From assembly GCA_910577205.1 (NCBI GenBank), contig CAJTMA010000001.1:137840-201839 (forward strand): a stretch of 64,000 nucleotides of DNA. Direction: 5' to 3'. Position numbers and translations under genes: made by a program. The notes beneath the pieces are model-generated. The model was not told the DNA's origin. It did no database searches and was given only the letters and a program-made list of their open reading frames with translations. Shown piece after piece: positions 27,371 through 37,861 of this stretch (its first letter is position 1; each line of letters begins with the position of its first letter). Source of the DNA: an uncultured Alphaproteobacteria bacterium. GTDB lineage: Bacteria; Pseudomonadota; Alphaproteobacteria; RF32; CAG-239.

Positions 27371-29209
27371 TTGCGAATCGGCGCAAGGGCTTATGTGATG
27401 GCGAAAGTTACCAAGAAAAAGAAAACCGTAAAAAAAAGAAAAAAAAGAGAGTCAAAACAAAGAGTTGAGAATCGGCGGCTGCTCTTAAAGTTTATTGCGG
27501 CGCTGGTGATAACTTTTGCAGCCTGTCTGCTGTATTGTTTTCTGACCCTGCCGGATATTGAACAGGCTGTTTCGCGCACCAGACAGCCCTCCACGACCAT
27601 TACCGCAGAAAACGGCAATGAAGTCGCGACTTATGGGCAGATTTATTCCGCAGTGGTTATGCCCGACTATTTGCCGAAGCACGCGACAGAAGCGATTATT
27701 GCCACAGAAGACCGGCGGTTTTATCATCATTTCGGGTTTGACGTTATCGCTTTCACCCGGGCGATGGCCGTTAACCTCATTAAAGGGCGCTATGCCCAAG
27801 GCGGCAGCACGATTACGCAGCAGGTTGCCAAAAACCTGTTTTTAACGCCTAATAAAAATATCAAACGCAAAGTTCAGGAATTGCTGCTGGCTTTTTGGCT
27901 GGAACACAAATTCACCAAACAACAGATTATGGCGCTTTATTTGAACCGGGTATATCTCGGGGCGGGAACTTACGGCATAGAAGCGGCAGCCAATAAATAT
28001 TTTCAGAAAACTTCTGCGGATTTAAACTTAAAGGAAGCGGCTATTCTTGCCGGAATGCTTAAAGCCCCGACACGTTATAATCCGGCGGCAAATCCGGAAC
28101 AGGCCGAAAAACGGGCAAGAATTGTTTTGCAAAATATGGTGGATGAAGGCTATATCAGCGAGGCTGAACGGCAAAAGGCTCTGAATATGCCAACCGGCGC
28201 GTTGATATCCGATAAAGTCGAGGGCGGAAAATATTTTGCTGACTGGGTTTATAATGACGTCAACGCCTATATCGGCGAGCGGGAAAATGATATTTATGTT
28301 TATACAACCCTTGACCAGCATATTCAGGAAGCCGCGGATAAAATTCTGACGGAAAGCATTAAAGCCAACAAAAATAAAAATGTTACCCAAGGGGCGATAG
28401 TCGTTTTAGATAAATCAGGCGGCGTTAAAGCTTTAATCGGCGGTGTCAATTATCAAAAAAGCCAATTTAACAGGGCTATTCATGCCTTGCGGCAGCCAGG
28501 GTCGTCATTTAAGACTTTTGTTTATCTGACGGCGCTGCAAAACGGCTATAAACCAAGCGATATCATCGGTGATTTTCCGATAAGTATCGGCGATTGGCAG
28601 CCGGAAAACATCGACAAGAAATATCACGGCGAAGTCAGCCTGACCGAAGCTTTGGCAAAGTCTTACAATCTGGCAACTATTAATCTGGCGCAGTCGCTTT
28701 CTAAGTCTGAAATTATCCGAACCGCTCAAAAAATGGGCATTACCACCCCTATTCAAAATACGCCGTCTTTGGCTTTGGGGGCTTTTGAGGTTAAGGTTAT
28801 CGATATGGCCGTGGCTTATTCGGCGATTGCCAATGGCGGCTATGCGACTTGGCCTTATGCCATTAAAGAAATTTACAGCCGTGACGGCTATCAACTGTAT
28901 ATGCGCGAAAATGACGACAACAATCAAATTCTTGACCGCCGGGCAGTTAAAGACATGGCAAAAATGCTGGAGCGCGTTATCCAAACCGGAACGGGGCGCA
29001 AAGCCAAACTGCCGTTTTTTGCTGCCGGAAAAACAGGAACATCACAAGATTACCGCGACGCGTGGTTTGTCGGCTTCACGGATAAATATATTGCCGCGGT
29101 ATGGGTGGGCAATGACGATAATTCACCCATGAAAAAAGTCGGCGGAAGCTCTCTGCCTGCTGAAATCTGGCGCAAAGTCATGCTGGCGGCTCATGAAAAC
29201 CACGACTGA
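27371..29209 (+). CDS. Class A penicillin-binding protein (GT51 transglycosylase plus transpeptidase).
   Basis: EDRRFYHHFGFD (GT51), SSFK (SxxK), KTGT. Start may be the internal ATG at 27398. Confidence 0.85.
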   Translation: MRIGARAYVMAKVTKKKKTVKKRKKRESKQRVENRRLLLKFIAALVITFAACLLYCFLTLPDIEQAVSRTRQPSTTITAENGNEVATYGQIYSAVVMPDYLPKHATEAIIATEDRRFYHHFGFDVIAFTRAMAVNLIKGRYAQGGSTITQQVAKNLFLTPNKNIKRKVQELLLAFWLEHKFTKQQIMALYLNRVYLGAGTYGIEAAANKYFQKTSADLNLKEAAILAGMLKAPTRYNPAANPEQAEKRARIVLQNMVDEGYISEAERQKALNMPTGALISDKVEGGKYFADWVYNDVNAYIGERENDIYVYTTLDQHIQEAADKILTESIKANKNKNVTQGAIVVLDKSGGVKALIGGVNYQKSQFNRAIHALRQPGSSFKTFVYLTALQNGYKPSDIIGDFPISIGDWQPENIDKKYHGEVSLTEALAKSYNLATINLAQSLSKSEIIRTAQKMGITTPIQNTPSLALGAFEVKVIDMAVAYSAIANGGYATWPYAIKEIYSRDGYQLYMRENDDNNQILDRRAVKDMAKMLERVIQTGTGRKAKLPFFAAGKTGTSQDYRDAWFVGFTDKYIAAVWVGNDDNSPMKKVGGSSLPAEIWRKVMLAAHENHD

Positions 29210-29220
29210 TACTAATTGTA

Positions 29221-29258
29221 AAACAAAACCGTCCGGCGGATAAACCGGACGGTTTTCA
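29221..29258. terminator. Bidirectional terminator (ccgtccggcggataaaccggacgg with flanking T/A runs). Part of inverted-repeat arm A.
   Basis: Hairpin with U-tracts on both strands. Confidence 0.7.
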
Positions 29259-30016
29259 GATGACGGTAAGCTGTGCCTTATTTTGAAAGTTCAGTTATCC
29301 GCTTTGCCGCAATCCGTCCCCGAAAATTCTCTCACTTTTTTCAGGGATAAAAACTTTATCAGGCTTCCAAAACCACGCTGACATTAAGCTGATAATAGTC
29401 CAGCAGATAACCGATATCCATATTGGTTATGGCGGCGCGTCCGCTTTCGATTTTCTCTAGACTTTTAAAGTTGACTTTGGTTTCGCGGCAGACTTGCTCC
29501 CGGCTGATGTTGCGCTGCGAGCGTATCATTAGCAGCCAAATGCCGAGCGTCCGCCCGATGGTGGTTTGCAAATCTTTGGGTGTGATTTGCAGCGTTACTT
29601 TTTCTAACATTCCAAGCTCCTGTTTTGTTTTGGGATATCATAAAATCCCTACCTAACAATTCCGACTATATTTGCTGTTTCGGCAGCTGTCGCAACCTCA
29701 CAACAAAAAGTCTCATTGCTTATCTCAACAAAACAATTTTCAAATTGTTTTGTTTTCGCAGCCCCTTAATTTTAAGGGGAGGTTAGGTAGGGATTAATTT
29801 CTCCAAACCCTGTAAATTAAAACAAAAACCGCCTTAAATTTTAAGGCGGAGGAGCTGAAAAACTGCCAATAACAGTCAGTCTTATTCGTGCTTACGCCTT
29901 ATATCGACCACTCCCCCGAAAAGGAGGATATTTTTTTATTGGAGATGTTTTTCAGACACCACAACCGATCTCCCGGCTGCGAGAATTATATTAGGTGATT
30001 ATTTTTATTTTGCAAT
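29222..30016. repeat. Arm A of an imperfect large inverted repeat. Contains an XRE HTH gene plus ~400 bp upstream. Roughly 85-90% identity to the reverse complement of 36339-37270.
   Basis: Aligned by eye: terminator, HTH gene, gagcttggaatg start context, and upstream attgcaaaataaaaata...ggttgtggtgtctgaaaaacatct block. Confidence 0.75.
29359..29610 (-). CDS. XRE-family helix-turn-helix transcriptional regulator, 83 aa, copy A.
   Basis: ISREQVCRETKVNFKSLEKIESGRAAI HTH. 79 of 83 residues identical to the 36878-37129 product. Confidence 0.75.
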   Translation of the reverse strand: MLEKVTLQITPKDLQTTIGRTLGIWLLMIRSQRNISREQVCRETKVNFKSLEKIESGRAAITNMDIGYLLDYYQLNVSVVLEA

Positions 30017-30184
30017 CAAAATATTGCGATTGTTTGGTTGGGAGGAAAGTCGGCCAATGGGGGGAATATTGGGAAAGGCTGAGGTCGCAGCAGAAAAAAG
30101 CGGCGCGGAGAGAGGTGAAGAATGTAAAGCCGAGTAACGATAACAGGCTGCTCAAAGACATGGCAACAGATACGGAGATATTTA

Positions 30185-30658
30185 TCAGAAATAGTTGTCA
30201 ATTATCGGGGCAAAGACTTCCACCATCTGTTTATATGCATCTTTTTTTACGCTCCAGACCAAATCCGGCGTTTCGCGGATATCAACCCAGCGGTATTCCT
30301 TAAACTCCGGTTCAGCTGTCTGCAAATTGATTTCTGTTTCGCTGCCTGTCAGATAGAACAATGACCAATATTGTTCCTGTCCATCGGTTAAAATACCGCG
30401 CTGGCTAAAAATATTTTTAACTTCCGGCGGAAATTCATAGCGTATCGGCTTTTCAATTCCGGCAATCCATTTTACGCTGTGCAACGAGGTTTCTTCAAAC
30501 AATTCGCGGGCTGCTGCCTGCTTAGGCGTTTCACCGGCTTCTATGCCGCCCTGCGGAAACTGCCAAAGATTGCCCTCGCCATTAATGCGGGCGCAAACCA
30601 AAACTTTTTTATCGTCCCGAAAAACGACCACCGCTGCATTTTTGCGAAAATTTGCCAT
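30185..30658 (-). CDS. rppH: RNA pyrophosphohydrolase (Nudix).
   Basis: Nudix box GG.E.GETP..AA.REL.EE. Alphaproteobacterial RppH-like N-terminus. 157 aa. Confidence 0.85.
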   Translation of the reverse strand: MANFRKNAAVVVFRDDKKVLVCARINGEGNLWQFPQGGIEAGETPKQAAARELFEETSLHSVKWIAGIEKPIRYEFPPEVKNIFSQRGILTDGQEQYWSLFYLTGSETEINLQTAEPEFKEYRWVDIRETPDLVWSVKKDAYKQMVEVFAPIIDNYF

Positions 30659-30660
30659 GC

Positions 30661-31833
30661 TTATTCCGCCACCAGATTAGAAACCGGAACTAAAGCAAAG
30701 GGTTTGGCAATCTCAGAAATGTTTTTCTCTTTCATTTCCTCATAACTTAATTGCGGCGAAAAGCTTTTTATCCATTCGCTTAAAGCCAAAACAACCACTG
30801 GCTTGGGTTCGGTTACGATAATCACCCGTCCTTTGTCACGGGCAATTTGTTCTGCCTGTTGCAATTTTTCTTCGGTTGACTGGCGGGAGTAATCGTTTTC
30901 GATAACAATATCAGCTTTTGCGCGGACTAAACGATCGATTTTAAGCTGAGCCAAACCGTCATGGTTTACAGAATCAATAACCAGCAAACCGCGATTTTTT
31001 AACTCTTGCATAAGTGTTGCCAATTGTTCGGCATTGCTTTCATCTGCAACGCCTGAGCGAACAATGATACCGCCGGAGGGTACTTTTGCGCCGATAACTT
31101 TTTCAAGCCGGCTGCGATTTTCATCAAGGCTGGCCGTCAAACTCATGGAAAGCGGTCCGCTGTCTGATTTCAGATAATCTTCTGACGGCAGCAGAAAGTC
31201 CATATAGGTTTCGTGTCCCTCTGTTCTGGCTTCCGCCAATTGTTTTTCCAAAACCGGGGCATAAGGCGAAAAGGAGAAGCTGACTTCCGCAGGCAGCCCT
31301 TTGTTTATCAGACGGGCGTGGGCTGGGTTAGCCCCCAGATTGGCAATCACCACCGCAACACGGTTAAAACGGGGCATAACCTGAACTTTGCGGCCATAGG
31401 TTTCCCATGGGCGCTCTTTGCCGTCTGTCTTCGGCAGCAGCAATCCGTTTTTTTCTTCAACCAAATTATCTCTTGGCTGAATGTCCGGCAAAGGCTTTTG
31501 CCCATCGGCATCGCCCAGTTTTCCCAAATTAGGAATACGGCTTAAAACAGCTTCAAGGCTGTGCGGATTTTCCGAGGCGGCCTCTGCCTGCGCTTCTTGG
31601 GTTGGCGCATTTTTCACTTTTTCAGGCGTTTCTTGTTTTTTTACCCTGTCTGGCAGCGTGATTATGTATTTGGGCGATTTGTTATGCGTGTCATACATAA
31701 TCCTGTCAATTTTTGACAGATAAACTGGTTCGCTTTTCTTGCTGGCAAACAAATATCCCAGTCCGGCCATTCCCGCCAAAGTCAGCAGGATAACCAGAAA
31801 CAGCGTTTGTTTTTGCCGCAGAGTTTCAATCAA
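30661..31833 (-). CDS. Divergent polysaccharide deacetylase family protein (YibQ-like).
   Basis: RVAVVIANLG block and position downstream of ctpA, as in many alphaproteobacteria. N-terminal TM. Confidence 0.6.
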   Translation of the reverse strand: MIETLRQKQTLFLVILLTLAGMAGLGYLFASKKSEPVYLSKIDRIMYDTHNKSPKYIITLPDRVKKQETPEKVKNAPTQEAQAEAASENPHSLEAVLSRIPNLGKLGDADGQKPLPDIQPRDNLVEEKNGLLLPKTDGKERPWETYGRKVQVMPRFNRVAVVIANLGANPAHARLINKGLPAEVSFSFSPYAPVLEKQLAEARTEGHETYMDFLLPSEDYLKSDSGPLSMSLTASLDENRSRLEKVIGAKVPSGGIIVRSGVADESNAEQLATLMQELKNRGLLVIDSVNHDGLAQLKIDRLVRAKADIVIENDYSRQSTEEKLQQAEQIARDKGRVIIVTEPKPVVVLALSEWIKSFSPQLSYEEMKEKNISEIAKPFALVPVSNLVAE

Positions 31834-31836
31834 CGT

Positions 31837-33150
31837 TTAGTTTCCTTTTTCTTCCAAGCCCTGATTGTATAAATTCAACGCCTTAACCAAATCAATTGCG
31901 CGGGACAACTGGTAGTCTTTTGCCAGTTCTTCGGCTTCAGCTTTTCTTTGGTCTGCAGTTTTGCCTTTTTTATCGCCGGCGGTTTCGTTTTTCAGCGCGT
32001 TGCTGAATTCGGCCTCGCTGAAACCAACGCCGGTGTCGATAATTTCAACTTTAGCCGGTTTGACCTCAATATCGGGTTCAATGCCTTTGGCCTGAATAGA
32101 ACGTCCGGACGGCGTATAATAGCGGGCAGTGGTTAATCTCATCGCGCCGAATTTGCCAAGCGGGATAACTGTCTGCACCGAACCTTTGCCGAAAGATTTT
32201 TCGCCAAGGATAATGGCGCGTTTATGGTCTTGCAATGCACCGGCAACAATTTCAGAAGCAGAGGCTGAGCCGTCATTAATCATAACCACTATCGGCAGTC
32301 CTTTGGCAATATCACCCTCTTTGGCGGTGTATTTGACGGTGTCTTCCTCATTGCGTGACCGGGTGGAAACGATTTCGCCTTTGTCAAGGAACAAGTCTGA
32401 AACATTAACCGCCTGATCTAACAAACCGCCGGGATTATTGCGTAAATCAATAACCACGCCTTTTAATTTCTCGCCGTGTTTTTTCTTGGCTTCCTTAATT
32501 GCTTTGGCAATCATATTGTCAACATCATCGCTGAAAGATGAAATGCGGATATAAATCACGTCATCAGCTTTAATGCTGTGTTTGACGGATTGGATTTTGA
32601 TTTCCTCGCGTTTGAGGGTAACTTCCAGCGGCTTCTCATTAAGACGGCGGATTGTCAGCTTGACTTTGCTGCCGATTTTGCCGCGCATTTTATCTACCGC
32701 GTCGTTTAAGGTCATGCCCATAACGGCTTCATCATCAATATTCGTAATGTAGTCACCGGGCTTTAATCCGGCTTTGGAAGCAGGGGTGTCGTCTATCGGC
32801 GACACGACTTTTACCACGCCGTTTTCCATGGTGACCTCAATTCCCAAACCGCCGAATTTGCCTTTGGTTTGTTCGCTCATGTATTTGAAGCTCTGGTCGT
32901 CTAAAAAGCTGGAATGCGGATCTAATGCCGATAACATCCCGTTAATCGCAGATTCAATCAGTTTTTTATCTGTAACATCTTCCACATAGGACACTTTTGC
33001 CCGCTCCATAACCTCGCCAAAGAGATTTAACATCTCGTAGGTGTCGGCATCGGCTGCCGGAGTTTTAGCATTTTTTGCCGCTTGTGACATCGGCGATGCC
33101 ATCATCAGGCATAAGAGTGAAACAGTAAATAATGATATTCTTTTCCGCAT
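31837..33150 (-). CDS. ctpA: Carboxy-terminal processing protease (S41).
   Basis: PDZ plus S41 motifs (GGLGIE, RNNPGG, SASASE). I chose MRKRISLF as the start in preference to the ORF-track extension. Confidence 0.9.
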   Translation of the reverse strand: MRKRISLFTVSLLCLMMASPMSQAAKNAKTPAADADTYEMLNLFGEVMERAKVSYVEDVTDKKLIESAINGMLSALDPHSSFLDDQSFKYMSEQTKGKFGGLGIEVTMENGVVKVVSPIDDTPASKAGLKPGDYITNIDDEAVMGMTLNDAVDKMRGKIGSKVKLTIRRLNEKPLEVTLKREEIKIQSVKHSIKADDVIYIRISSFSDDVDNMIAKAIKEAKKKHGEKLKGVVIDLRNNPGGLLDQAVNVSDLFLDKGEIVSTRSRNEEDTVKYTAKEGDIAKGLPIVVMINDGSASASEIVAGALQDHKRAIILGEKSFGKGSVQTVIPLGKFGAMRLTTARYYTPSGRSIQAKGIEPDIEVKPAKVEIIDTGVGFSEAEFSNALKNETAGDKKGKTADQRKAEAEELAKDYQLSRAIDLVKALNLYNQGLEEKGN

Positions 33151-33163
33151 ATTTTTTTCCTTA

Positions 33164-34426
33164 CTAATTTGCAAACCACGAAACCGGGTTAACCGGGTGA
33201 TTTTGTTTACGCAGTTCCATATAAAGCTTGGCATCGCTGTCACCAGGCATTAAGCCGACGGGCTCTCCTGCCAGCAGCAGCTGCCCCAGTTCACAATCTA
33301 TCGTATCCAATCCGGCCAGCAAAGAGGTGTAGCCTTTGCCGTGTTCGATAATAATCAGATTGCCGTAACCGCGGAACGGACCGGCAAAGATGACTGAGCC
33401 GTCAAACGGCGCGATAACCTGCGCCTGCGGACGGGTTTTGATAATAATGCCTTTGGAGCTGACGCCTTTGGCGGTTTCCTGTCCGTAAGCCGTGACAATC
33501 TGCCCTCTGGCCGGCCGCGACAGTTTACCCCGCGCTTTTACAAAATTATCCCCGATTTCATTTATAACCTCGGGTTTGAATTTAATCAAGTCGGCAGTTT
33601 TCACTTGTTCACGCTTTTGATTTTCCTCAGCTTCTTTTCTTCTCTGCTCTTCAAGCGCAGCCAAACGCCGGCGTTCTTCTTCCTGTTTGCGGCGCTTTTC
33701 CTGCTGTTGCTTTTCCAGACGGCTGAGCAAATCGCGCAAGTTTTGTGCTTCGCCGGCTAATTTTTGAACTTTTTTCTTAGCTTGTTCGCTTTTGACTTCC
33801 ACCACATTTCGCAGCTTGGATTTTTTCTGAACCAGCGTTTTCATTTGTTCATGCTCGGCTTCCAAGTTTTTTTTCTGCTTAACAATACGGGCTACTTGGG
33901 CTTCCACACGTTTTTTCTGGAGTTCGATTTTTTCCAACTCCTTACGCAAGCGGGAGGCGTTCTCTTCCAAATATGGCACTGTTTCGCGCAGCAGCATGGC
34001 ACTGCGGATGATTTCCACCGGGCTCAGGGGCTGCACAAACAAAGCTTCTGTCGGCTTGAGCGCCAAGTTTTGCAAAGCAGCCAGTGTTTTTATCAGGTTT
34101 TCGTCTTCTGAAGAAAAGTTGCTTTCCGCCGTTTTTAAATCTGCTGAAAGCTGTTCAAGCTCCGCCTCCATTTTGGAAAGCGTTTCTTCGTTATTCTGTA
34201 TCAGCTTGGCAGACCTAATCATCTGCTGGTTAACTTTTTTCAATTCATCGTTAATCTGGGTGGCTTGCTCCTGCAATCGCTGATGTTCCAGATTTTGCGC
34301 TTTAACCTGCTGCTCAACCTGCTCCAAGTCCTGACGAGAAATTTTTTCGGCGCGAACTGACCCAAGCATGAGGCCAAACAGCCCCATACTTACCATAATC
34401 AGTCTGTTCAAGCGCCGAAAAGTCAT
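33164..34426 (-). CDS. Murein hydrolase activator EnvC-like (coiled coil plus M23/LytM domain).
   Basis: Long coiled coil (QQ/EE/KK-rich). C-terminal M23 fold (GIII...G..V.A...G.V). Confidence 0.8.
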   Translation of the reverse strand: MTFRRLNRLIMVSMGLFGLMLGSVRAEKISRQDLEQVEQQVKAQNLEHQRLQEQATQINDELKKVNQQMIRSAKLIQNNEETLSKMEAELEQLSADLKTAESNFSSEDENLIKTLAALQNLALKPTEALFVQPLSPVEIIRSAMLLRETVPYLEENASRLRKELEKIELQKKRVEAQVARIVKQKKNLEAEHEQMKTLVQKKSKLRNVVEVKSEQAKKKVQKLAGEAQNLRDLLSRLEKQQQEKRRKQEEERRRLAALEEQRRKEAEENQKREQVKTADLIKFKPEVINEIGDNFVKARGKLSRPARGQIVTAYGQETAKGVSSKGIIIKTRPQAQVIAPFDGSVIFAGPFRGYGNLIIIEHGKGYTSLLAGLDTIDCELGQLLLAGEPVGLMPGDSDAKLYMELRKQNHPVNPVSWFAN

Positions 34427-34430
34427 GCCG

Positions 34431-35966
34431 TTAGTTCTTAACCAGCAAAGAGTGTCCGTTCATTTCAGCCGGTTCGGGAATATCCAGCAACTGCAGCAAA
34501 GTCGGCGCAATGTCAGCCAAGCGCCCGTCTTTCATGGCGGTTACGTCTTTCGGACCGTTAACCAAAACAGCCTGAACTTTGCCGACAGTGTGAGCGGTGT
34601 AAGGTTCGCCGGTTTTCTCGTCAACCATCTTTTCGGCATTACCGTGGTCTGCGGTTACCAACAAGACACCGTCAACATCCTTAATGGCTTTAACGACGCG
34701 GCCGAGGCATTCGTCAACAGCGGCAACGGCTTTCAAAACCGCGTCCATTTTGCCGGTGTGCCCAACCATATCGCCATTGGCAAAATTACAGATAATCACG
34801 TCGAATTTTTTATTTTCAATCGCGTCAACCAGATTATCGGTTACTTCATAAACGCTCATTTCCGGCTTTAAGTCATAAGTAGCAACTTTCGGGCTGGGAA
34901 CAAGTATCCGGCTTTCGCCCGGAAATTCTTTTTCTTCGCCGCCGTTAAAGAAAAACGTGACGTGGGCATATTTTTCGGTTTCGGCAATGCGCAGCTGGGT
35001 CAAACCGTTTTCTGCAACAACTTCTCCGAAGATGTTTTTCAGAGCTTCCGGCCCAAACATGGTTTTCATGAAACGGTTATGGTCGACAGAGTATTCGGTC
35101 ATACCGACAGCCATTGATAAAGCAAAAGTTTTTTTGCGGGCAAAACCGTCAAATTCTTTATCTGCCAAGGCATATAAAATTTCACGGGCGCGGTCGGCGC
35201 GGAAATTCGCCATCAGAACTGCGTCACCGTCTTCAAAACCTTTATAGTCGCCGATAATGCAAGGAACGACAAATTCGTCAGTCACGCCGTCTTTATAAGA
35301 GGCTTCAACAGCTTCGGCAGAGGTTGCCGCGTGTTTGCCCTCGCCTAAGGCAATCGCATTATAGGCCGCTTCAACACGATCCCAGCGTTTATCGCGGTCC
35401 ATGGCATAAAAACGCCCGGAAACCGTCGCAACTTTTACACCGTTTAAGCCGGCAATGGCTTTTTCAAATTCTGCCAGATATTCTTTAGCAGATGACGGCG
35501 GGGTGTCACGGCCGTCCAAAAAGGCATGAACGTCTGTTTTGATATTGTTTTCTGCCAAAACTTTGCATAAAGCAACAATATGCTCCATTGAAGAATGCAC
35601 GCCGCCCGGGGACATCAAGCCCATCAAATGGCAGGTTTTGCCATTAGCCTGCAAATCGGCAATCAATTTTTGCAAAACAGAATTATCTTTAATGCTGCCG
35701 TCTTTAATGGCCTGGTCAATTCTCGGCAAATCCTGCATAACAACGCGGCCAGCACCCAAATTCATATGTCCGACTTCAGAGTTGCCCATCTGGCCTTCCG
35801 GCAAACCAACTGCCAGTCCATAGGTTTCAATCAGGCTGTGCGGATATTCATTCAGGCAGTTATGCCAGTTAGGCGTATGACCGTTTTCAATAGCGTTGTC
35901 AGCCGTCTTAGGTTCACGATAGCCCCAACCGTCCAGAATCAGCAGCATTACAGGTTTCTGTTTCAT
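34431..35966 (-). CDS. gpmI: 2,3-bisphosphoglycerate-independent phosphoglycerate mutase.
   Basis: LLILDGWG N-terminus, metalloenzyme core, ADHGN. 511 aa. Confidence 0.95.
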   Translation of the reverse strand: MKQKPVMLLILDGWGYREPKTADNAIENGHTPNWHNCLNEYPHSLIETYGLAVGLPEGQMGNSEVGHMNLGAGRVVMQDLPRIDQAIKDGSIKDNSVLQKLIADLQANGKTCHLMGLMSPGGVHSSMEHIVALCKVLAENNIKTDVHAFLDGRDTPPSSAKEYLAEFEKAIAGLNGVKVATVSGRFYAMDRDKRWDRVEAAYNAIALGEGKHAATSAEAVEASYKDGVTDEFVVPCIIGDYKGFEDGDAVLMANFRADRAREILYALADKEFDGFARKKTFALSMAVGMTEYSVDHNRFMKTMFGPEALKNIFGEVVAENGLTQLRIAETEKYAHVTFFFNGGEEKEFPGESRILVPSPKVATYDLKPEMSVYEVTDNLVDAIENKKFDVIICNFANGDMVGHTGKMDAVLKAVAAVDECLGRVVKAIKDVDGVLLVTADHGNAEKMVDEKTGEPYTAHTVGKVQAVLVNGPKDVTAMKDGRLADIAPTLLQLLDIPEPAEMNGHSLLVKN

Positions 35967-36494
35967 GTGTTTCTCTCTTTCAAAATGTTAGCCAGCGCAG
36001 ATTATACGCCGTTTTTTATCATCTAAAACTTTTTCGTATTATATATAATAAATGAGAATAAAAAAGCACTATTTTTATGCTTTATGCAGAAAATAAAACA
36101 TCTTACCCCAATAAATATATTTACGAGCGCTGAACGAATCAGGCTGATTAAACGGCGGTTGGGATGCGGACGAAAAATGTAAGCTAACAGCGACGGGGCT
36201 TGGGAATAACATTTTTCCCCTTAATTTTAAGGGGAGATAAAGAGAGGTTTAATATGAATAAAGTCTATTTTGCATGGATTCTTCGTCGCACAGCTTCTCA
36301 GAATGACGTTTTAGGAGGGGAGAGCAACCATAAAATATATTGCAAAATAAAAATATTCACCTAATATAATTTTCGCAGCCAAGAGATTGGTTGTGGTGTC
36401 TGAAAAACATCTTTCTTACTAAAATATCCTCCTTTCGGGGGAGTATACGATATAAGCCATTGGTCGAATAAGTATGACTGTCGTGAACAGTTGC

Positions 36495-36762
36495 GACCTA
36501 AAATATTCCCTTAAAACAATATTTAGCAAATAAGAAAAGTTTATAATGCGCCGTGCTTTTTAGCAGGCGCTACTGAGCGTTAGCGTCAATAAAAAGGACA
36601 AGCAGAATGAGCTTTTCTTGTTTGTCCTTCGGATTTGTGGTTAAAAAGTATCTGCGTCAGAAAACTCCTTGCAGGTAGCAGCAACTATCTGCGGCGTCGT
36701 TTTCTTAGCAGCTGACTTTTTACTCGCAAACTAAATGTTATTTTAAGGGAATATTTTAGGTC
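36495..36762. mobile_element. MITE-like non-autonomous element, 268 bp, with 32-bp terminal inverted repeats.
   Basis: gacctaaaatattcccttaaaacaatatttag (36495-36526) against ctaaatgttattttaagggaatattttaggtc (36731-36762). Absent from the corresponding site in arm A. TTGC on both flanks could be a target-site duplication. Confidence 0.55.
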
Positions 36763-36877
36763 ATTGCTCCTCCACCTTTTTCTAAAAAGGTGGTTTTGTT
36801 TTTAAAATCCTTTCTCTGCCTCCCCTTAATTTTAAGGGGAGGTATGGAGGGGATTAATAAACCTAAAGGAGCTTGGA

Positions 36878-37129
36878 ATGTTAGAAAAAGTAACGCTGCA
36901 AATCACACCCAAAGATTTGCAAACCACCATCGGGCGGACACTCGGTATTTGGTTGATGATGATACGCTCGCAGCGCAACATCAGCCGGGAGCAAGTCTGC
37001 CGCGAAACCAAAATTAATCCGAAAAGTCTGGAGAAAATTGAAAGCGGCCGTGCTGCCATAACCAATATGGATATCGGTTACCTGCTGGATTATTATCAGC
37101 TTAACGTCAGCGTGGTTTTGGAAGCCTGA
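36878..37129 (+). CDS. XRE-family helix-turn-helix transcriptional regulator, 83 aa, copy B.
   Basis: Near-identical paralog of 29359-29610. RBS aaaggag. Confidence 0.75.
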   Translation: MLEKVTLQITPKDLQTTIGRTLGIWLMMIRSQRNISREQVCRETKINPKSLEKIESGRAAITNMDIGYLLDYYQLNVSVVLEA

Positions 37130-37230
37130 TAAAGTTTTTATCCCCGAAAAGCGGGAGAGAATTTTCGGGGACGGATTGCGGCAAAGCGATAACTGAACGT
37201 TCAAAATAAGGCACAACTTACCGCAATCTG

Positions 37231-37270
37231 AAAACCGTCCGGTGTTATCCGTCGGACGGTTTTGTTTTTA
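37231..37270. terminator. Bidirectional terminator shared by the HTH gene (+) and recR (-).
   Basis: ccgtccggtgttatccgtcggacgg hairpin with T-runs on both strands. Confidence 0.7.
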
Positions 37271-37861
37271 TAACAACTTACGAGAATTCAGCGCCAGCTG
37301 TATTGTGCCTTCATCCATATAATCCAGTTCAGCACCCATCGGGATACCTTGAGCCAGGGTGGTGATTTTTACCCCGCTGTCTTTTAAGCGAGAAACCAGA
37401 TAGTGGCAGGTTATCTGCCCGTCAACTGTTGCAGGAAGCGCCAGAATAATCTCCGACACTTCATCGCGCGCCACACGCGAGAGCAGGCTGTCAATATTCA
37501 AATCTTCAGGCGCAACGCCGTCCAATGCTGACAGAATACCGCCCAGCACATGGTATTTACCCTTAAAAAAGGATACTCTTTCCATCGCCCACAAATCTGC
37601 CACATCTTGAACAACGCATAATTGTCGGCCGTCACGCTTATCTGACGCGCAGACAGAACAAGGGCTTTGTGTATCAAAATTGCCGCAAATTTCGCAGGTT
37701 TGCACTTTTGTTGCCACCTCGTTAAGAGATTCAATCAGCGGCAAAAGCAGATTTTCGCGCTTTTTCAGCAATTGCAGCACAATCCGCCGGGCTGAACGCG
37801 TTCCCAGAGATGGCAGTTTGGCGATTTGTTTCGCCAGTTTTTCAATTTCTTTTCCGGCCAC
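37268..37861 (-). CDS. recR: Recombination protein RecR.
   Basis: C4 zinc finger CxxC...CxxC plus Toprim. 197 aa. Confidence 0.95.
   Translation of the reverse strand: MAGKEIEKLAKQIAKLPSLGTRSARRIVLQLLKKRENLLLPLIESLNEVATKVQTCEICGNFDTQSPCSVCASDKRDGRQLCVVQDVADLWAMERVSFFKGKYHVLGGILSALDGVAPEDLNIDSLLSRVARDEVSEIILALPATVDGQITCHYLVSRLKDSGVKITTLAQGIPMGAELDYMDEGTIQLALNSRKLL

Follow-up and report, generated by a model that had tools for sequence, protein, structure and literature searches.

A MITE-like palindromic insertion in the structured leader of a repeated HTH-gene cassette of an uncultured alphaproteobacterium

The stretch of 64,000 nucleotides analyzed here, which we refer to as the window, contains a 268-bp non-coding palindromic element within one of two copies of a cassette that encodes a small helix-turn-helix (HTH) protein. 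The explanation we prefer, with a probability of roughly 0.6, is one recent MITE-like palindromic insertion into a structured leader, which gene conversion between paralogous cassettes later spread to some copies and removed from others. All 13 copies of the element occupy the same nucleotide position, share the same junction and keep the same orientation relative to the HTH gene. The transposition of the element is unproven and there is no sign of ongoing transposition.

The two arms of the inverted repeat, arm A (~29244-30016) and arm B (~36339-37243), align at 87-93% identity over blocks that are 322, 103 and 56 nt long. They are two copies of a ~0.9-kb cassette composed of a promoter-like box, a structured leader, a terminator and an XRE HTH gene. 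The features that the following discussion relies on are:

29244-30016, minus strand: arm A, the cassette with an empty site, with TTTCA at 29856-29860 and the HTH gene at 29359-29610
36340-36370, plus strand: promoter-like box TTGCAA...TAATAT/TATAAT of arm B, near-invariant in all copies
36374-36492, plus strand: 5' part of the leader, from a consensus fold and pair counts over 12 empty leaders
36375-36394, plus strand: leader helix 1, followed by the helix-2 5' strand (36395-36408), a hairpin (36427-36442), helix 4 and P3 (36477-36491)
36493-36494, plus strand: left junction GC, which together with the right ATT stands in place of the TTTCA of empty sites
36495-36526, plus strand: left terminal inverted repeat GACCTAAAATATTCCCTTAAAACAATATTTAG, from inverted-repeat analysis and a mismatch scan
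36527-36624, plus strand: internal hairpin A, with arms 36527-36549 and 36602-36624 enclosing smaller hairpins
36634-36730, plus strand: internal hairpin B, with outer arms 36634-36649 and 36715-36730
36731-36762, plus strand: right terminal inverted repeat, complementary to the left arm at 30 of 32 positions
36763-36765, plus strand: right junction ATT, from the comparison of filled and empty sites
36766-36803, plus strand: remainder of the helix-2 3' strand (GCTCC) and leader terminator, with its stem at 36772-36793 and a T-run to 36803
36806-36855, plus strand: palindromic hairpin module with core CCCCTTAATTTTAAGGGG, between terminator and ribosome-binding site
36878-37129, plus strand: 83-aa XRE-type HTH gene of arm B, with Pfam matches HTH_31, HTH_19 and HTH_3
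37231-37263, plus strand: terminator closing the cassette, from a terminator scan

An earlier note on this DNA, made from the letters alone, described the element as interrupting arm B exactly where arm A is continuous. Arm A is indeed uninterrupted at the insertion point; the arms are otherwise not collinear, with one 21-nt and one ~105-nt segment of arm A missing from arm B. The ~105-nt segment (29657-29761, minus strand), which is also found in another locus (L026), lies within the palindromic module between leader terminator and ribosome-binding site. It holds a palindrome of its own, AAAACAAAACAATTTGAAAATTGTTTTGTT, and differs from the 268-bp element; an 8-mer, GTTGCGAC, is common to it and the left junction of the element.

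The spacer between leader terminator and gene is a mosaic of 50-250 nt, usually with the palindromic module, a unit of ~50 nt whose palindrome CCCCTTAATTTTAAGGGG occurs three times (29762-29779, 36217-36234 and 36822-36839). Two module copies, 36216-36250 and 36806-36840, flank the entire arm B leader, and the module is present in some cassettes and absent from others. It attracts a weak Rfam match to whalefall-1, and a CCCTTAA/TTAAGGG core is common to it and the terminal repeats of the element. Resemblances of a terminal-repeat arm to this module and to the promoter box of the cassette (19/24) were considered and set aside as within chance for AT-rich sequence. The box itself reads TTGCAA...TATGAT in the outgroup species; its promoter function is putative, since it falls below the threshold of a consensus scan.

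Between the arms lie gpmI, a gene for an M23 peptidase, ctpA, a polysaccharide deacetylase gene and a NUDIX gene, and beyond arm B follow recR, ybaB and dnaX, whose product carries an alphaproteobacterial DUF3646 tail. The 90% cluster of RecR includes proteins named from "Azospirillum sp. 47_25" and "Candidatus Scatocola faecipullorum", which we take to be names of uncultured gut lineages.

The terminal repeats of the element are real, as the earlier note had proposed: two arms of 32 nt each, 94% complementary and separated by 204 nt. Of the inverted repeats in the entire 64-kb window that are 24 nt or longer and fall within 600 nt, theirs is the best, and a search with the 32-mer at up to three mismatches returns only these two arms in 64 kb, with 0.00 matches expected from 100 shuffles. 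The interior, said to be without an open reading frame, has none above 23 codons, and gene callers placed no gene in the element at any locus. This longest frame, MSFSCLSFGFVVKKYLRQKTPCR (36606-36677, plus strand), has an AGGA 8 nt upstream; it was rejected as a gene and is likely due to chance. Its hydrophobic stretch is not long enough to form a membrane helix, and it varies very little between copies. What had been noted as a single interior hairpin turned out to be two long imperfect ones, hairpins A and B, the latter including a weak terminator-like stem (36669-36694). As RNA, the plus strand is predicted to fold at -118.1 kcal/mol, compared to -59.7 for shuffled sequences (z = -13.3), and the minus strand at -103.6 kcal/mol, so that the plus strand is better by 14.5 kcal/mol. 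A consensus scan found no promoter-like site inside the element.

What does such an insertion interrupt? The leader is ~160 nt long and ends in an intrinsic terminator. Its consensus was derived from 12 distinct empty leaders, one of them from a more distant species, and comprises five helices in which 98.7% of the cells are paired, compared to 37-55% when the partners are slid. None of 500 shuffles attained the 22 double-change cells of this fold. Helices 1 and 4 and the long-range helix 2 all show compensatory changes, and the terminator stem alternates among copies between CCACC/GGTGG and CCGCC/GGCGG. Because the helices covary and the terminator stem alternates in paired form, we regard the leader as a selected RNA structure, and it is a candidate for an undescribed cis-regulatory RNA. 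An antiterminator pairing of the helix-2 5' strand with the terminator was also considered and rejected, because that strand shows no covariation with the CCACC/CCGCC variants of the terminator.

Helix 2 consists of GGTGTCT[G/C]AAAAAC pairing with GTTTTT[C/G]AGCTCC. Its switch between G-C and C-G (7:4) is the TTTCA/TTTGA polymorphism of the empty sites, which is the very stretch replaced by the element. The insertion thus falls in the helix-2 3' strand, just upstream of the leader terminator. For an empty leader, the predicted pair probabilities of the helix-2 core reach 0.98 or more; in the filled leader of the window those pairs that can still form stay at 0.07 or below, and the element is predicted to fold into a three-part hairpin of its own. 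The insertion spares helix 1 as well as the small hairpins, the leader terminator and the gene for the HTH protein.

The comparison of filled and empty sites also defines the junctions. An empty site reads CAGTT-TTTCA-GCTCC and a filled one CAGTT-GC[element]ATT-GCTCC; five bases (TTTCA) are replaced, not duplicated. TTGC does stand on both flanks, flush with the left end (36491-36494) and one base off the right end (36764-36767), and had been suggested as a possible target-site duplication. This suggestion fails, because the empty sites read TTTCA, TTTGA or TTCA and TTGC occurs in 0 of 41. The pre-insertion site that it predicts, CAGTTGCTCC, was never found among the cassette sites examined, and a duplication shared across copies did not emerge either: the 13 filled sites all read GC[element]ATT with the TTTCA-type sequence replaced.

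These counts derive from 55 cassette sites, namely those of the window and of 50 loci from independent assemblies; ~130 kb of the genome of the host organism were inspected directly. The element is present at 13 of the 55 sites and a 36-nt remnant at one (L022). Among the others, 25 are empty with TTTCA, 13 are empty with TTTGA, and three, from the outgroup species, are empty with TTCA. In that species the site reads CAGTT-TTCA-GCTCC, the leader is conserved, the HTH protein is 69-72% identical and the chromosomal context is different. With 41 of 55 sites empty, including those of the more distant species, the insertion is the derived state.

Filled sites are confined to two cassettes, one on the iPGM side, which is arm B of the window, and one on the M20 side. 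Both are filled on one contig in L002 and L004 (shHF8_20), and four other cassettes of the same genome lack the element. Across 12 loci from independent assemblies and the window the element is 98.9-100% identical. Copies on the iPGM side carry T37 and those on the M20 side C37, with one further copy showing two extra SNPs. T37C (window position 36531) is the only SNP between the two locus alleles and turns a G.U pair of hairpin A into G-C. Most loci stem from short-read metagenome assemblies, in which mis-joins are possible at 0.9-kb repeats; the element is nevertheless real and not an assembly artefact, and its placement is taken as real because the locus-specific SNP recurs across many assemblies. 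Occupancy at the two loci is about 13 of 20 sampled copies, with empty sites in other strains on both the iPGM side (L007, L018) and the M20 side (L025, L032, L033, L036). The element being derived, variable between strains at the same locus and nearly identical among its copies, the proposal of a recent insertion stands. Further copies, for which the earlier note had suggested searching, exist only in part: a second one, 99.6% identical, resides in the same genome, and none lies away from the cassette position, either in the 64-kb window, in the flanks of the 50 loci or in the global searches for exact matches described below.

How, then, did the element come to reside in two cassettes? According to the preferred explanation, a 268-bp non-coding palindromic segment would have entered one cassette copy once, in the recent ancestry of the species. 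By landing in the helix-2 3' strand it would have exchanged TTTCA for GC, the element and ATT. Homologous recombination, mostly in the form of short-patch gene conversion, would later have copied it into a second cassette and removed it from others among the six or more paralogous cassettes. The simplest account of an odd junction that is identical in both cassettes is a single insertion, copied afterwards by recombination. At the M20-side locus represented by L031 (filled) and L032 (empty), ~940 nt are identical except for the element and changes that start 51 nt to its left, and the window differs from L007 in the P3 loop, the element and the terminator loop. This linkage of presence or absence to flanking substitutions points to recombination between cassettes, as opposed to transposition or excision. 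Neighbouring variable sites moreover occur in all combinations among cassettes, which indicates that they exchange short patches. The P3 loop, which lies a mere 7-14 nt away from the junction, is not the same in the two filled cassettes, so that conversion needs a very short tract or a later patch repair; two site-specific insertions would also fit this difference.

The fate of the filled leaders may be pictured along the same lines. The element would be co-transcribed with the leader and fold into a very stable three-part hairpin, which would abolish helix 2 and probably alter or disable the regulatory fold of the two filled leaders. Several other cassettes encode the identical protein, and such a disturbance could be tolerated on that account: the presence of at least four other cassettes with the same protein would explain why the insertion is both tolerated and common. 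Records of the identical 83-aa HTH protein span 376 contigs. Should read-through into the HTH gene be under the control of the leader, one would expect the two filled cassettes to be altered or locked, and the long double-stranded stem could, by analogy to Correia elements, be a target of RNase III.

Two copies of one element in one genome can also be read as the work of a non-autonomous transposable element, such as a true MITE, that is active and strictly site-specific. A transposase or recombinase from elsewhere in the genome would mobilize it and direct it to this one position of the leader, and it would have inserted independently into two cassettes. Its form speaks for this reading: 32-bp terminal inverted repeats, small size, no ORF, AT-richness and a stable hairpin transcript fit the published description (PMC10969869). 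The two copies also sit in different P3-loop backgrounds, both of which exist empty as well, and presence varies between strains at both loci. We nonetheless hold it to be unlikely, as there is no target-site duplication, TTTCA/TTTGA being replaced rather than duplicated, no copy was detected outside one cassette position in 55 cassette copies, the window and the flanks of 50 loci, and flanking substitutions accompany presence and absence. The exact repeat core is furthermore absent from species genomes, bar one chance match, and from viral contigs, with only single-arm chance matches in JGI metagenomes. Still less favored is the idea that the element is an exapted or purpose-built RNA domain, which provides a new regulatory input or processing through RNase III cleavage or premature termination and is kept by selection. 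Its precise location within a covariation-supported helix of a conserved leader, the high frequency at the two loci, the more stable plus-strand RNA and the pair preserved by T37C are all in line with such a role, and MITE stems are known RNase III targets (PMC10969869). With only three variable positions among 13 copies, no Rfam family match, and neither the outgroup nor four further cassettes of the same genome carrying the element, we think it quite improbable. More speculative again, and about as doubtful, would be a homing module that specifically recognizes the long-range helix of the leader and, by putting its own giant hairpin in place of that helix, reprograms the expression timing of those cassette copies.

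Could the empty sites instead represent loss from an ancestral part of the leader? The remnant in L022 shows that loss by internal deletion is possible. It is a 36-nt derivative of the element, GACCTAAAATATTCCCTTAAAACAATATTTTAGGTC (~2900-2940, iPGM context), with a 13-bp stem and the same GC/ATT flanks, and is explained by a deletion between 7-nt AATATTT direct repeats in the two arms; seen as a precursor, it would demand that the complementarity of CCCTTAAAA and TTTTAAGGG between the two arms be coincidence, and this option was discarded. Such a deletion leaves a 36-nt scar with GC/ATT, whereas the 41 empty sites show intact TTTCA/TTTGA that covaries with the helix-2 5' strand. Moreover, the outgroup species is empty, and element copies are 98.9-100% identical as opposed to host leaders differing by 10-20%, all of which renders an ancestral origin very improbable. 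Least credible of all is an invertible DNA switch for phase variation, in which a site-specific recombinase flips the 204-bp interior between the 32-bp repeats. The arrangement of inverted repeats around a short stretch of non-coding DNA that precedes a regulator gene is what the element has in common with the fimS and hin-type promoter switches. It departs from them in that the interior has one orientation relative to the HTH gene in 13 of 13 assembled copies, no recombinase gene is adjacent (the neighbours gpmI, M23 peptidase, ctpA, recR, ybaB and dnaX are housekeeping genes), no promoter-like site lies within the element and recombinase sites are typically shorter than its repeats. In addition, a terminator stands between the element and the HTH gene.

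The global searches for relatives and for a parent insertion sequence relied on exact 20-22-mers, which would miss relatives that have diverged or a parent whose ends match imperfectly. Within this scope, the exact 20-nt repeat core produced one chance match in coding sequence (L011) and no other in 185,579 species-representative genomes. The core and two interior 22-mers had no exact match in viral contigs, and in JGI metagenomes the exact core uncovered no other element and six single-arm chance matches. None of these three collections yielded, with the exact 20-mer, an insertion sequence carrying the same terminal repeats, which the earlier note had suggested looking for. By blastn, neither the element in phage records nor the leader together with the element in plasmid records matched anything. 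An Rfam cmscan of 29000-37500 with E-values up to 1 yielded nothing on the element or the leader. Elsewhere in this interval, Rp_sR47 (Rickettsia sRNA47) gives a sub-threshold Rfam match at 32161-32294 on the plus strand (50.9 bits where the gathering score is 60, E = 7e-11); the match runs antisense within the coding sequence of ctpA, an S41 peptidase gene, and probably reflects conserved coding sequence.

In form, the element is closest to bacterial MITEs and Rickettsia palindromic elements. MITEs are defined by terminal inverted repeats, small size, no ORF, AT-richness and a stable hairpin transcript, and their stems, including those of Correia elements, are RNase III targets (PMC10969869). 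The element has terminal inverted repeats at both ends, is 268 bp long (below ~500 bp), contains neither a transposase nor a real ORF and is AT-rich, with a transcript predicted to form a stable stem-loop. With the Correia element of Neisseria, ERIC and MITEAba12 (PMC10969869) it shares the length of a few hundred base pairs, the long terminal inverted repeats, the lack of coding sequence, the AT-richness, the very stable stem-loop transcript and an intergenic, presumably transcribed position. It differs from bacterial MITEs in lacking a target-site duplication, in its 0-2 copies per genome, in having all copies at one homologous position of one repeated cassette, in that no parent insertion sequence with matching ends emerged from the exact searches, and in a spread that is explained by recombination and not by transposition. 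The designation as a non-autonomous transposable element holds as far as the non-coding, AT-rich and hairpin-forming character is concerned; no insertion at an independent site was found. Because the duplication and multi-site criteria fail, we call the element MITE-like and do not file it as a MITE.

Rickettsia palindromic elements are 100-150 bp long and number in the tens per genome, scattered over many unrelated locations and often lying in frame within proteins. Like these, the element is a palindromic, hairpin-forming insertion in an alphaproteobacterium without recognisable duplication or transposase, and is tolerated inside a functional structured gene product. At 268 bp and with a single type of site it is set apart from them, and it is likened to them by description, not by sequence. 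They have been counted among the small palindromic repeats (PMC10969869).

For the host cassette the nearest counterpart is the tandem of Brt small RNA and Trp HTH genes in Bartonella henselae, for which the leader is proposed to control read-through into the HTH gene (PMC5387305). Both systems combine, in multiple copies, a highly structured RNA of ~160-200 nt ending in a terminator-like stem with a small downstream XRE-family HTH gene without a promoter of its own, and both are found in plastic genome parts of an alphaproteobacterium (PMC5387305); structured leader, terminator and XRE HTH gene, present in multiple copies, are all found here. The HTH protein of the cassette has 83 aa compared to 108-152 aa for Trp, the spacer between terminator and gene 50-250 nt compared to 10-18 nt, no insertion like that of the filled cassettes is reported for Brt, and the host here is not a Bartonella. 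Local alignment scores with Brt stayed within the range of shuffles, for a comparison that covers the published primer and probe fragments of Brt only, and a search for homologues of the HTH protein returned 14 proteins. The cassette hence resembles Brt/Trp in architecture only; homology could not be established.

The chromosomal sites of the cassette add a further layer. At least six contexts exist, with iPGM, NUDIX, M20 peptidase, DnaJ, S41/RNB and S49 on the upstream sides and RecR, PBP, NMO, SmpB, the L33 side and SDR on the downstream sides. Neighbours are re-paired between assemblies, for example M20+RecR, M20+PBP, S41+RecR and DnaJ+SDR (L005, L010, L023, L025 and L038 as compared to L002, L004, L019 and L001). 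The cassettes thus look like breakpoints of chromosomal rearrangements, with short-read mis-joins being possible. Among the loci examined, none had the 6.3-kb segment that separates arms A and B in inverted orientation. The outgroup cassette (L058, 1-5300) is flanked by inverted duplicates of DUF2062-ACPS-S26 genes, and repeat units of ~130-140 nt, tandem or inverted, are found upstream of cassettes in the S41 context (L019, ~830-1530) and in the outgroup (L058/L059, ~2300-2800).

Taken by itself, the element is a minor, lineage-restricted palindromic insertion, and the host cassette with its leader is the more interesting part. It serves as a natural marker showing that HTH cassettes exchange short patches and act as apparent rearrangement breakpoints. 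Should the doubtful homing alternative hold true, it would represent a mobile RNA-structure cassette on a new, Brt/Trp-like class of riboregulators in gut alphaproteobacteria. As a natural mutation, it breaks one helix of a conserved leader without an Rfam match, and strains with and without the insertion offer ready material for comparison in studies of Brt/Trp-like leaders.
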